64,000 bases of DNA, taken from positions 462,682 through 526,681 of the forward strand of contig CBDCRW010000003.1 in the NCBI GenBank assembly GCA_965221125.1, in the 5' to 3' direction. How positions within the stretch are numbered: position 1 is the first letter of the stretch; the number at the start of each line of letters is the position of its first letter. This DNA comes from Alphaproteobacteria bacterium. GTDB taxonomy: Bacteria > Pseudomonadota > Alphaproteobacteria > UBA828. The translations under genes were made by a program, and so were the position numbers. The notes under the pieces were generated by a model. It ran no database searches and was not told where the DNA came from. It was given only the letters and a program-made list of their open reading frames with translations. Positions 11,541 to 58,171 of the stretch are shown piece after piece.

Positions 11541-11690
11541 GGCCCCGCCCCCCCCCTCCTCTCCCCGGCCCCTCCGCCTTCCCGGGCCGCAGGCCCGGAC
11601 GGCGCGACCGCGCCGCGCGCGAAGCGCGTAGCCAAGCGAGCGGAGCGAGCGCCCGGCGCCTGAGGGATAAGAAAGAGTCGGGAGCAGGGA
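11541..11690. repeat. family-B GC-rich structured repeat, copy 1
   Basis: The core at 11581-11660 (CCCGGGCCGCAGGCCCGGACGGCGCGACCGCGCCGCGCGCGAAGCGCGTAGCCAAGCGAGCGGAGCGAGCGCCCGG) aligns with 58024-58100, differing by a handful of substitutions. It sits in a convergent intergenic gap. Confidence 0.7.
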
Positions 11691-52055: not shown

Positions 52056-53411
<1,356 letters not shown>

Positions 53412-53629
53412 TCAACGCCCTGACCCCGTGATCCAGCTCATGGTCCGGACGAGACCCGGACACCCAAATCCCCCGACTCTCCCCCATCAGGCGAAACGCC
53501 CGTCCACGGGTCGCTGCGCCGGCCTGCGACCCATAAGTCATATCAATAGATATGTGCGTCATGTGGCGCTCTTCCTGACGGTCGGGAACGCGCCTGCCGC
53601 TCTCTGGCTGGTGGGCGCCAACGCCGCGT

Positions 53630-54537
53630 TCTGACCCGCTTGCAACCAGAGAACACCGCTGCCCAATCTTGAATGAAGAGTTTCGGGCTCGTCGATCCCA
53701 GCTATTCTTCGCAAACTTCACTGCAGCTTCTCCTAGATTGCAGCAAACTCGCATATCCGAATTAATTGAACGTCATAACTTTCTACCAAAGTAGTACTGT
53801 TCGCTTCTTAGTTTAAGCACTGTATTCATGTAGTGTAATTCCGGCTTAGTGACGACACGACGATCATCTTGACCACCGGAGAGGTATATCGTTGGCGTAA
53901 CGGGCAGGCAAAGTCCGGCACTGCTTTTGTCAGGGACAATAAACTCTCCACACGCACTCTCCACAATTCCCCACGAATAGCCTCGCAAGGCGTTTCTGAC
54001 ACGACCATAGTCGTGTTGAACCAAGAATCCGGCGATATGACGGCCGGGTAGAACCGCACTTGCCCCACGGTCGATATAGGTCGCCATGCTGCTCTTTTCC
54101 AACGCCTCTCTATCGTCCCGAGAATAACCCGGTCGTGCGGGCAAAATTCCCACTAATTCCTGATCGTCCAGATACTTATTTTTCCAGCAACAGCGAACAT
54201 GCCAAAGCGAATACATATCTGTAACGACCTGGCTTTCCTCAATGCTGAGCCGACGAGACCAACTCTCTGCTTCCAATTGGCTTACGATATCCTGATATGC
54301 ATTTTCTATACCCTGCATGAATAGTGTTTCTGCACGCTGATCCCATACCCTGCGTGCACAGAAAATCTCATTGTCAGGCTTCATGGGAACGGTTTTGTCT
54401 TTGTCGATCAAGTAAACTTCGACCACACCCTTTTCGTTGCAAAACCTCTCAATTGATTTCTTCGGAAAACAGTGCTGGTTAATTGTCAGTTGATGCGGAT
54501 TTCCGGGTTGGGTCTTTTCGTACTTCACGGATGTCGC
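53630..54537. other. low-GC islet (probable horizontally acquired insert) between eno upstream region and parC
   Basis: Hand counts give 28/60, 29/60 and 28/60 G+C in three 60-nt samples inside the islet ORF (54469-54528, 54241-54300, 54301-54360). The adjacent 54541-54600 of parC gives 47/60. Confidence 0.75.
53773..54528 (-). CDS. hypothetical protein, DUF4238-like (candidate standalone defence gene)
   Basis: It is the only long ORF in the islet (251 aa, GTG start 9 nt after the parC stop). Motifs NQHCFPKKSIERF and WGIVESACGEFIVPDK...LCLPVTP resemble the DUF4238 hallmark blocks as I remember them. This is not verified by search. Confidence 0.6.
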   Translation of the reverse strand: MKYEKTQPGNPHQLTINQHCFPKKSIERFCNEKGVVEVYLIDKDKTVPMKPDNEIFCARRVWDQRAETLFMQGIENAYQDIVSQLEAESWSRRLSIEESQVVTDMYSLWHVRCCWKNKYLDDQELVGILPARPGYSRDDREALEKSSMATYIDRGASAVLPGRHIAGFLVQHDYGRVRNALRGYSWGIVESACGEFIVPDKSSAGLCLPVTPTIYLSGGQDDRRVVTKPELHYMNTVLKLRSEQYYFGRKL

Positions 54538-56772
54538 CTACAGAAACCGATTGGCCGCCGGGAAGCCGCGCGGGGCCGCACGGCCGGCCTGGCCCCGCTT
54601 GCCGCGCCACTGGTCGAGCGCCGTCTCGGTGCGCACGCCGGCGCCGGCGCGCCAGCGCAGCCCCTCCGCCCGCCCGAAGACCTGCGCGTCCGAGAGCGCC
54701 GCGTCGCGGTAGCGCTGCAGGATCACGCCCCGCCCCCGCGCCATGGTCGGCACGTCTTCCGCCGGGAAGAGCAGCAGGCGCCGGTTGGAGCCGACCACCG
54801 CGACCCAGTCGCCGGCCGCCTCGACGCAGACCGCCGCTTCCGCCCCCTGCGCCACGTTCAGCACCTGCCGGCCGCTGCGGGTCTGGGCGACGGCGTCGTC
54901 CTCGGCGACGAAGAAGCCGCGCCCGTCGCTCGCCGCCACCAGCCGCCGCCGGCCGGGCCGGTGAACGAAGAGCGCCACCGCCTCGTGATCGTTGCCGAGG
55001 TCGACCATGAGGCGCACGGGCTCGCCGAAGCCGCGCCCGCCGGGCAGGCGATCCGCCGGCAGCGTGTAGAAGCGCCCGTTGGTGGCGAAGAGCAGCAGCT
55101 TGTCGGTGGTCTCGGCGTGGAAGCGGAAGCGCTCGCGGTCGCCCTCCTTGTAGCGCACCGCCGCGTCGGCCTCGGCATGGCCCTTGACCGCGCGTATCCA
55201 CCCCTTGGCCGAGCAGATCACCGTGATCGGCTCGCGCTCCACCAGCGCGTCGGCCGGCACCGTCTGCGGCGCGGGCGCGCGGCCGATGGCGGTGCGCCGC
55301 TTGCCGAGCGTAGTCTCCTGCCCGAAGCGCGTCCTGATCTCCGCGATCTCGGCGAGCAGCGCTGTCTTCTGCCGCCGCGTGCTCTTCTCCAGCGTCTCGA
55401 GCCGCGCGCGCTCCGCCTCCAGCGCCTCGTGCTCGCGGCGGATCGCCGCTTCCTCGAGCCGGCGGAGAGCGCGCAGCCGCATGTTGAGGATCGCGTCCGC
55501 CTGCACCTCGTTGATGCCGAACGCCGCCACCAGCGCGGGCTTCGGCTCGTCCTCCTCGCGCACGATGCGGATCACCTCGTCGAGGTTGAGGTAGGCGACG
55601 AGATAGCCGCCGAGGACGTCGAGCCGGTGGGCGATCGCCGCCAGCCGATGCGCCGTCCGCCGCAGCAGCACCGCGCGCCGGTGGTCGAGAAAGGCCTGCA
55701 GCACCTGCTTCAGCGTCATCACGCGGGGGACGCCTTCTGCATCCAGCACGTTCATGTTGAGGCCGATGCGGGTCTCCAGCTCGGTCTGGCGGAACAGCAT
55801 CTCCATCAGCAGCGCCGGCTCGACCGTGCGGCTCTTCGGCTCCAGAACGAGCCGCACGTCCTCGGCGGATTCGTCCCGCACGTCGGCCAGCAATGCGAGT
55901 CTCTTCGCCTGCAGCAGCTCGGCGATGCGCTCCACCAGGCGCGCCTTCTGCACCTGGTAGGGGATCTCGGTGACCACGATCTGGTACTGGCCGCGCCCCA
56001 ACTCCTCCTTCTCCCAGCGGGCGCGGACGCGAAAGCCGCCGCGCCCGGTTGCGTATGCTTCCGCGATCTGCGCGCGGTCTTCCACCAGCACGCCGCCGGT
56101 GGGGAAGTCCGGCCCCGGCACCAGTTCAACCAGCGCGTCGTCCGAGAGCTTCGGGTCCTTGAGCAGCGCCGTCAGCGCGTCGCACAGCTCGCCCGCGTTG
56201 TGGGGCGGGATGCTGGTGGCGAGGCCCACGGCGATCCCCGCCGCCCCGTTGGCGAGCAGGTTGGGGAAGGCAGCCGGCAGCACCACCGGCTCGGCGTCGC
56301 CGCCGTCGTAGGTCTCGCGGAAGTCGACGGCGTCCTCGTCCAAGCCGTCGAGCAGCGCCTGCGCCACCTCGGTGAGCCGCGCCTCGGTGTAGCGCATCGC
56401 CGCGGCGTTATCGCCGTCGACGTTGCCGAAGTTGCCCTGCCCTTCCACCAGCGCGTAGCGCGCGGCGAAGGTCTGGGCGAGCCGCACGAGGGCGTCGTAC
56501 ACCGCGGTATCGCCGTGCGGGTGGTACTTGCCGATCACGTCGCCCACCACCCGCGCGCACTTCTTGAAGCCCGCGTCGGGGTCGAGCTTCAGCGCCCGCA
56601 TGGCGTAGAGCAGGCGGCGCTGCACCGGCTTCAGCCCGTCGCGCACGTCGGGCAGCGAGCGCGCGGTGATGGTGGAGAGCGCGTAGGCCAGATAGCGCTC
56701 GCTCAGCGCATCGCCGAGCGGCACGGGCTGGATCGCGCCTTCCGTCGCGCTGTCGTCTGCGATTCGCGCCAT
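54538..56772 (-). CDS. parC: DNA topoisomerase IV subunit A
   Basis: ATG at 56772 ([12 protein letters not shown]). Blocks [24 protein letters not shown] and GKYHPHGD, with the active-site region AMRYTEARL. 744 aa. recO is the upstream neighbour. Confidence 0.9.
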
Positions 56773-56803: not shown

Positions 56804-57568
56804 CTAAGAGTCCCGCTCGGCGCGAGGGGCGGACGGCGGCGGCGCGCCAGCCTGCAGGCGGTCGATGAAGCGCTCGCGGGCCTGCGGCATGCGCCCGCCC
56901 TGGCCTGCAAACACGTGCTTCTCCAGGAACCAGCCGGTGAGCCTGAGCCCCGCGACGATATCGGCGGCGGACGCCGGATCGACCTCGGGCTGCGCGAGGA
57001 AGGGCGGCAGCGGCAGCAGCTTCTCCGCGTAATCTGCGCCGGCCTCGCGCGAGACTGCGCGGCCGCTGCGGGGCGAGACGTAGACGAGGTCGTCCACCGC
57101 GCCGGTCGCCGCGCAGGCCGCAAGGTCGAGGCCAAAGCCGAGCTCGCCCAGCAGCGCCAGCTCCCAGCGCACCAGCGTCTCGGCCCACTGCCCGCCCGCT
57201 TCGAGGGCGTCGAGCAGGTGCCGCAGGGCCTCAAAAACTTGTGGGTAGGGATGGCGCTCCGGCAGCGTCGCGTCCGCGAGCGCGCACACCGCCGCGAGCG
57301 CCGCGAGGCGGGGCGCATCGTCCAGCAGCATGCTCGATTGCGCGCGCACCAGCTCGCAGGTGTAGCGGCCGAGGTGCTCCGGCAGCCGCGCCTGCCAGCG
57401 GGCGGCCAGCGTGTTGCCCGGCTGGTAGAGCCCGCGCCCCCGCCGGCCGCGCGCGCCCTGCACCAGCCCGGCGTGGCGGCCGTGCCGCTCGGTCAGCAGC
57501 GAGACGACGGCGGCGCTCTCCCCGTGGCGGCGGGCGGAGAGGACGATTCCCGTGTCGCTCCATTCCAT
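56804..57568 (-). CDS. recO: DNA repair protein RecO
   Basis: 254 aa. [26 protein letters not shown] is a typical RecO OB-fold N terminus. Confidence 0.85.
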
Positions 57569-57935: not shown

Positions 57936-58145
57936 CACCCCCACCTCACCCCGGCCCTCTCCGCCCCCAAGGGACGGAGAGGGAGAAAAAGACCGGCGTG
58001 GCTTGCGTTCCCCCTCCGCCCTGCCGGGCCGCAGGCCCGCACGGCGCGACTGCGCCGCGCGCGTAGCGCGTAGGCAAGCGAGCGGAGCGAGCGCCCGCCG
58101 TCGAGGGAAACGAACGACTCGGGAGGGGGACAGGGGGAGGTGGGG
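57936..58145. repeat. family-B GC-rich structured repeat, copy 2 (with terminal inverted repeats)
   Basis: The core at 58024-58100 matches 11581-11660. Ends CCCCACCTC (about 57939) and GAGGTGGGG (58137-58145) are inverted. Internal 9-bp-stem hairpin CCCTCTCCG / CGGAGAGGG at 57955-57983. Confidence 0.75.
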
Positions 58146-58171
58146 CGGCGGGCACCGGACCATGGTGCGGG

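Follow-up and report, generated by a model that had tools for sequence, protein, structure and literature searches.

What is a single AT-rich gene doing directly behind parC in the genome of a GC-rich alphaproteobacterium? The question arises from a 64,000-nucleotide stretch of contig CBDCRW010000003.1 (positions 462,682 to 526,681; assembly GCA_965221125.1, an Alphaproteobacteria bacterium of the GTDB lineage UBA828), hereafter the window. In it the minus-strand open reading frame (ORF) at 53773..54528 starts with GTG and encodes a soluble protein of 251 amino acids (aa) and 29 kDa. On the evidence of sequence comparison, this protein is a compact, deeply diverged and separate branch of the DUF4238 superfamily, which falls outside the validated Rst_DUF4238 family as that family is currently modelled. 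From the contexts of its homologues and by analogy with Rst_DUF4238, we consider that it probably acts as a stand-alone anti-phage or anti-element defence, a reading to which we give a probability of about 0.55. What appears to be new is the occurrence of a distinct, unmodelled DUF4238 branch in an unusual chromosomal slot that is apparently coupled to parC and shuffled by recombination.

The ORF differs sharply in composition from its surroundings. Its G+C content (GC) is 0.478 against 0.693 for the whole window, flanks of 0.72–0.79 give way abruptly to 0.46–0.52 inside the islet that it forms, and this islet is the sole 750-bp segment of the window below 0.60 GC (minimum 0.473, z = -7.9). 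GC at third codon positions (GC3) is 0.50 in the ORF and 0.95 in parC, the codon adaptation index (CAI) is 0.18 compared with 0.64–0.77 in host genes, and rare codons account for 102 of 250, as opposed to 3–9% in host genes. These values bear out an earlier note on this DNA, which had reported an abrupt drop from hand counts (28–29/60 against 47/60, in agreement with the computed GC) and AT-rich, atypical codons. Its description of the gene itself also holds, namely a 251-aa minus-strand ORF whose GTG lies 9 nt after the parC stop TAG (54538-54540) with no Shine-Dalgarno-like sequence, encoding a protein with no transmembrane segment (maximum 19-aa hydropathy 0.87).

To which family does the protein belong? 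Scored alone against the Pfam profile of DUF4238 (PF14022), it reaches 18.5 bits (E = 0.0015), short of the gathering threshold of 27 bits, with residues 17-113 aligned to positions 1-107 of the 281 in the profile, and scans against PADLOC, NCBIfam and PHROGs gave no matches. Used singly, the ORF protein retrieved only three loci in metagenome-assembled genomes (MAGs) from a genome collection, and tblastn found no match in 50,697 phage records. A word-indexed search returned 105 homologues, 103 of them without a precomputed Pfam domain; the homologues P0070 and P0103 carry a precomputed PF14022, and NCBI names some relatives DUF4238. In an exhaustive search, 600 clusters (50% identity) passed E <= 1e-3 and 423 passed E <= 1e-10, which describes a widespread family of about 250 aa. 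Longer members (297–367 aa) were considered as domain fusions and set aside, their extensions being of low complexity and resembling miscalled starts. In an alignment of 69 sequences, H19, F56, W62, E67, P209 and N235 are invariant and many polar residues nearly so, with conserved blocks GNPHQLT-QHxFP-SIxRF, FCAxRVWDQRAE, ExLEK, WGI-EFIVPD-LPxxP and YYFxR. PF14022 is matched by 46 of these 69 members at E <= 0.01 (best 1.7e-10). The ORF protein shares with PF14022 the N-terminal H-x-x-P...F and the C-terminal F-I-x-x-D and P-x-x-P blocks, and departs from it in its sub-threshold score and in a match confined to residues 17-113.

The only validated relative comes from Escherichia coli. A single DUF4238 protein encoded in a P2-like prophage hotspot protects against T7 (Rousset et al. 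2022, PMC9122126), in line with the earlier note; this Rst_DUF4238 protein is pFR101 of E. coli TA007 in the supplement of that study. The literature searched offers no mechanism for DUF4238. BLASTP of the ORF protein against the validated protein found nothing, and hhalign of the family against an Rst-clade profile built from 35 homologues gave E = 6.8e-5 over 226 collinear columns at 16% identity, with a moderate probability of only 63.5%. The aligned residues (family to Rst) include H19-H8, E75-E66, R112-R112, W186-W199, D200-D215, P209-P246 and N235-N275. The DUF4238 identity proposed in the earlier note therefore stands as superfamily kinship, through the 46 of 69 profile matches and the hhalign alignment, but not as a qualifying match of the ORF protein itself.

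The ORF and Rst_DUF4238 have much in common: each is a single gene without a partner, the two are collinear with matching invariant His, Glu, Arg, Trp, Asp, Pro and Asn residues, their predicted secondary-structure elements follow the same order, they share a sole structural neighbour in BFVD, and both are associated with mobile or defence regions. They differ in length (309 aa for Rst_DUF4238, 251 aa for the ORF protein) and in sequence, as the 16% identity indicates. Extra helices (about residues 109-166) and a W..P..SPGFG loop occur in the Rst protein alone, whereas the N-terminal GNPHQLT and the RVWDQRAE motifs are confined to the ORF protein. Furthermore, the ORF is chromosomal, coupled to parC and outside the P2 hotspot, unlike Rst_DUF4238.

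AlphaFold models of the ORF protein (predicted local distance difference test (pLDDT) 95.5, predicted template modelling score (pTM) 0.92) and of an Rst-type protein (pLDDT 87.0) show the shared element order and the extra helices of the Rst type. The only significant BFVD match of both models is V9IQH5 of Stenotrophomonas phage Smp131 (ORF model, E = 3e-4, TMq 0.55; Rst-type model, E = 9.9e-10, TMq 0.40). A profile search of PDB sequences returned only L35 (E = 1.1), dismissed as chance, and readings of the VPD and QH motifs as PD-(D/E)xK or His-Me nucleases were dropped, the motif order being unfit and Foldseek giving no nuclease fold.

Where do distant homologues reside? The nearest homologue found away from parC is only 45% identical, and every context inspected that is not linked to parC is a mobile or conflict-type region, a qualitative observation at nine loci. 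One homologue (L007) lies in an integrative and conjugative element (ICE) with TraG/TraI, integrases, SNase and SIR2_2; another (L008) is directly upstream of a Type ISP restriction enzyme; and a third, from Bradyrhizobium (L009), is near a SIR2 gene. Family members occur on 214 plasmids, among them a Pseudomonas putida megaplasmid, where the homologue accompanies DUF262 and a methyltransferase, a Burkholderia conjugative plasmid, where it adjoins an integrase, and Klebsiella plasmids, where homologues lie between NYN, HNH, restriction-endonuclease and RES genes. One homologue marks the edge of a Mu-like prophage. On a siphovirus-like contig (L022 7415-8191) a family member stands reversed between the tape-measure and distal tail genes, the position of a moron, and on an IMG/VR contig (L023 6580-7913) a member split into two ORFs lies directly downstream of an apparently complete pair of DarT (PF14487) and NADAR-DarT1 antitoxin (PF22397, E = 2e-94), with an integrase 3.5 kb further downstream. 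No partner gene is conserved across the contexts inspected, which show a single-gene architecture.

The Klebsiella homologue is very distant (23% identity) and is carried by L019 (CP067845.1) and 174 other Klebsiella plasmids; on the plasmid inspected (27.6 kb) it sits amid NYN-domain, HNH and restriction-endonuclease genes, and copies of IS26 flank it.

Such contexts could also indicate a gene that serves mobile elements, as an inter-element competition, exclusion or anti-defence factor stranded after parC. The 214 plasmids, the ICE, the edge of the Mu-like prophage and the moron in a phage tail module all speak for this explanation. We nevertheless regard it as unlikely, since the parC-linked clade carries no element genes and yet is under purifying selection across deep allele classes, and the only validated member of the superfamily defends the cell that carries it.

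The features of the locus in the window are as follows, all on the minus strand except where stated.
53773..54528, minus strand: compact DUF4238-superfamily ORF, 251 aa.
54529..54537, minus strand: 9-nt spacer GCGACATCC from the parC TAG to the GTG, without Shine-Dalgarno sequence.
53635..53772, minus strand: AT-rich 3' tail of the cassette, roughly 140 nt, kept among class-A alleles.
53566..53634, plus strand: C-terminal remnant of a small convergent ORF (last 22 codons, 53566-53631).
54538..56772, minus strand: parC, encoding topoisomerase IV (Topo IV) subunit A (744 aa), the upstream cistron.
56804..57568, minus strand: recO, first gene of the co-directional recO-parC-ORF unit, kept in relatives.
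52056..53360, minus strand: eno, downstream neighbour in this genome only; bioD occupies this place in relatives.

Together, the parC stop TAG, the 9-nt spacer, the 251-aa ORF and the AT-rich tail make up a cassette of about 0.9 kb. Within a clade of GC-rich alphaproteobacteria that resemble Rhodospirillales, it occupies the place where the 3' ends of parC and the following gene converge. In relatives at 78%, 88%, 63% and 49% identity, on GC-rich MAG contigs labelled Alphaproteobacteria or Rhodospirillales, the ORF likewise lies 9–12 nt downstream of parC within a recO-parC-ORF unit, and the contrast in composition recurs (ORF GC 0.45–0.48, parC GC3 0.89–0.95). The spacer is 9 nt in the allele classes A and B defined below and 12 nt, followed by ATG, in class C. 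The earlier suggestion of expression by read-through or coupling from parC is consistent with this conserved spacing without a Shine-Dalgarno sequence or promoter.

That the cassette is wedged between parC and eno, as first described, is true of the window, but the adjacency to eno is secondary. The usual downstream neighbour in relatives is bioD, convergent to the cassette, with insertion sequence (IS) elements, a 74–76-aa convergent ORF, a DruA fragment or a Gp49 toxin gene sometimes in between. Synteny breaks at window positions 53361-53634, beyond which the window has eno-ftsB-pdhA in place of bioD-bioF-bioA, and no homologue of bioD, bioF or bioA occurs in its 64 kb. The small convergent ORF, probably a membrane protein, is intact in the relatives L001 and L006 and marks the far edge of the conserved backbone. 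The absence of bio genes and the 22-aa remnant of this small ORF indicate that eno was placed beside the cassette by a later rearrangement.

Is the cassette part of the core genome? Empty sites show that it is not. The gene is missing behind parC in L014 and L024 (parC 89–90% identical to that of the window), L015 (86%) and L016 (79%), where parC is separated from its convergent neighbour by 15, 176, 7 and 45 nt, respectively. Because empty sites exist in such close relatives, the islet is a real insertion, as had been proposed, and the cassette is accessory. Broken copies occur as well, one with a frameshift at residue 192 (L003/L012, near 6575) and one interrupted by a 1.66-kb GC-rich insertion (L011 8457-10117) that encodes a 518-aa ORF with a UPF0236 domain (PF06782), which we take to be a transposase of the ISLre2 family, and that duplicates about 9 codons at its junction. 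An N-terminally truncated copy (L013 8001-8444; residues 105-251, 56% identity) has no parC within 8 kb, so that movement or rearrangement has also affected the cassette or part of it. Scans of JGI metagenomes found nothing for a degenerate parC 3' end and one short fragment with a sister-clade alignment.

The pseudogenes and empty sites in close relatives, together with the very poor codon adaptation and the lack of a promoter or Shine-Dalgarno sequence of its own, would fit a neutral, selfish or decaying remnant tolerated without function at the harmless 3' end of parC. The ratio of nonsynonymous to synonymous divergence (dN/dS) of the ORF argues otherwise: at 0.12–0.27 it places the ORF under purifying selection, and reading frames have stayed intact despite saturated synonymous distances. 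Motifs strongly conserved across about 600 clusters and a model with pLDDT 95.5 are equally hard to reconcile with loss of function, and we consider a functionless remnant quite unlikely.

The stop codon of parC offers a view of the unit that is exchanged. It is TAG in six of six occupied loci (window, L001, L003, L004, L006, L011) and TGA or TAA in four of four empty ones (L014, L015, L016, L024; Fisher p = 0.005), and parC of L004 ends in TAG despite grouping with empty genomes. It would seem, then, that the stop codon is part of what is exchanged.

How old is the association with parC? Across five genomes, identity is 88–95% for parC, 79–88% for recO and 44–79% for the ORF, and the two genomes most alike in parC (L003-L006, 95.4%) are the least alike in the ORF (44.5%). 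Synonymous divergence (dS) of parC is uniform at 0.35–0.40 for all pairs; that of the ORF is 0.43 within class A (window-L001) and 1.4–2.1 when A is compared with B, and it reaches saturation in comparisons with class C. At least three deeply diverged allele classes thus exist, A, B (L004) and C (L006). The tested parC-linked alleles form one clade in a neighbour-joining tree of the family, which favours a single old insertion over several imports from donors unrelated to each other. The tree of parC places L004, of class B, with L014 and L024, both empty (98% bootstrap), and L006, of class C, inside a group of class-A genomes (100%); presence or absence and allele class are therefore shuffled relative to the flank. 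Variation of this kind among close relatives is typical of immune genes. The simplest reading would be an old multi-allelic polymorphism whose alleles are swapped by homologous recombination through the flanking core genes. The fresh acquisition implied in the earlier note is accordingly wrong for this clade, in which the gene is an old multi-allelic polymorphism fixed in place at the parC 3' end.

A domesticated host factor tied to Topo IV or RecO, for instance a modulator of chromosome decatenation or repair, would account for the invariant 9-nt coupling to parC, and the recO-parC-ORF arrangement and spacing are indeed kept in every occupied locus inspected, from 49% to 88% identity. Such a role is very unlikely in view of relatives that, at equal parC divergence, lack the gene or carry broken copies, of alleles far more diverged than parC, and of more distant homologues that are all unlinked to parC, in mobile or defence contexts.

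Polarised singleton substitutions from four class-A copies, two of which are pseudogenes and a possible source of noise, bear on the direction of compositional change. At third positions of the ORF, AT>GC and GC>AT changes stand at 22:30 (127 and 125 sites), where 35:17 would be expected from the per-site rates of parC in these genomes (binomial p = 2.8e-4); for the ORF this implies an equilibrium GC3 of about 0.42. The ORF keeps its AT-rich, rare-codon composition, with no drift toward host GC.

These results bear directly on a recent foreign import from a low-GC donor, for which the sharp GC3 boundary (0.50 against 0.95) and the mobility of the family as a whole might be cited. Six relatives, however, have the cassette in an identical position and equally low in GC, the tested alleles are one clade with internal synonymous saturation, the nearest homologue not linked to parC is only 45% identical, and the polarised substitutions describe a compositional steady state, not early amelioration. 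A recent import is highly improbable.

Three causes of the persistent composition may be considered. Rare codons could be selected to hold a harmful effector at a low level. AT-rich DNA is subject to xenogeneic silencing by MucR/Ros-type proteins in alphaproteobacteria, and by analogy silencing of this kind could be involved. Hypervariable alleles could, in addition, escape GC-biased gene conversion.

The islet combines atypical composition and presence/absence among close relatives with a lack of mobility signatures. There is no tRNA within 40–64 kb and no integrase, attachment site or prophage at the parC-linked slot. The cassette itself encodes no recombinase, and junctions of occupied and empty sites lack a target-site duplication. 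Repeats flanking the cassette are at chance level only and no inverted repeat brackets it. The earlier observation that integrase, tRNA and flanking direct repeats are absent is thereby confirmed. No promoter-like site was found upstream of the ORF start, and the 3' tail showed no terminator and no Rfam match worth noting. A role of this tail as terminator or small RNA was rejected, given the lack of a terminator, of an Rfam family and of significant or covarying structure (in the alignment fold, the covariation term is 0, with one compensatory pair), as was an integron-type attC-like 3' end, the tail folding no better than shuffled sequences (z = -0.54). A type II toxin-antitoxin module was likewise discarded: the cassette has no second ORF, and the flanking small ORFs vary between loci.

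How might the cassette then work? We propose that the ORF would form the final cistron of the recO-parC transcript and would be poorly translated, since ribosomes would have to reinitiate at a GTG without Shine-Dalgarno sequence and pass through rare codons; the resulting low constitutive levels would limit self-harm by the protein. Because no recombinase is present, homologous recombination within the core genes on either side would carry alleles, and the parC stop codon with them, from one relative to another. The product would be an anti-phage or anti-mobile-element protein that works alone and whose polymorphism is maintained by frequency-dependent selection, most likely an enzyme using H19, E67, E75, R112, D200 and N235 on a nucleic-acid or nucleotide substrate during infection.

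Several points weigh against this defence reading. The ORF protein scores below the PF14022 gathering threshold, and the hhalign probability of its kinship with the Rst clade is moderate. None of the 69 family members matches the PADLOC model DUF4238-Pers (PDLC03000) at E <= 0.1, a negative result that is meaningful because the model scores the validated Rst_DUF4238 protein at 2.5e-217; the earlier note had named the lack of a defence-model match in advance as a refutation of its proposal, and that part of the proposal failed. The structural check that it had recommended produced a confident model, but Foldseek found nothing in the PDB (best E = 2.6, TM-score < 0.2), so that no fold-based mechanism can be derived; since the fold has no PDB neighbour, the enzymatic idea draws only on the conserved polar residues. 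The context evidence is not a statistical enrichment, and members on plasmids and phages could serve those elements, not the host. Finally, incongruence of the alleles with the true genome tree is reached only indirectly, as parC belongs to the flank and may itself have recombined.

A more ambitious version of the defence reading can be put forward only tentatively. In this version, the compact branch of about 600 clusters, whose confidently predicted fold lacks a solved relative, would represent a novel immune protein that acts alone and escapes the present defence-finder models. In this clade it would be hard-wired to the end of an essential operon and would have persisted very long as a multi-allelic presence/absence polymorphism, with homologous recombination as its sole means of transfer. 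Its resistance to GC amelioration would stem either from selection of AT-rich rare codons that throttle a dangerous effector or from the escape of hypervariable alleles from GC-biased gene conversion.

If the defence role is true, it would assign a function, one that DefenseFinder and PADLOC at present overlook, to several hundred uncharacterised clusters found on chromosomes, plasmids, ICEs and phages. The small size and very confident model would make the compact branch a good handle on the mechanism of DUF4238. The locus may also provide a clean natural case of immune alleles kept and exchanged without mobile machinery, and it bears on why some foreign genes never adopt the composition of their host, whether because weak expression is selected, because they are silenced or because they escape GC-biased gene conversion.

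Defence hotspots flanked by core genes, like the moron slots of phages, are a general concept against which the parC slot can be compared. Examples include the P2/P4 hotspots (PMC9122126) and the island hotspots of Pseudomonas (PMC12629846). The parC slot resembles these in being a fixed site between conserved genes with presence/absence and allele turnover, and in the IS elements and defence or toxin genes (DruA fragment, Gp49) downstream in some relatives. It differs in holding one gene family at every occupied locus inspected, not assorted systems, and in a cargo that is predicted to be joined to the transcript of an essential gene at a fixed 9-nt junction.

In the vicinity of recO-parC-cassette, IS1595, IS66 and DDE transposases, the DruA (Druantia) fragment, the Gp49 toxin-like gene and an Arm-type integrase fragment were observed, at L005 2081-2560, L004 7974-8339, L001/L002 1164-2609 and L006 7223-9625. 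This gathering of transposases, DruA, Gp49 and an integrase fragment marks the surrounding region as an insertion hotspot.

The 176-nt gap behind parC in L024 was considered as a deletion scar and rejected, as it consists of an unrelated GC-rich palindromic repeat. This intergenic repeat family (GC 0.77; core ...CCCTCTCCGCCCCTGGGGGCGGAGAGGG...) recurs in the window (57938-58160 and 11551-11578) and in the genomes of relatives (L024 6233-6408, L001 9397-9505, L004 2827-2935). In L024 it occupies the otherwise empty gap between parC and bioD, and in the window copies lie upstream of recO.

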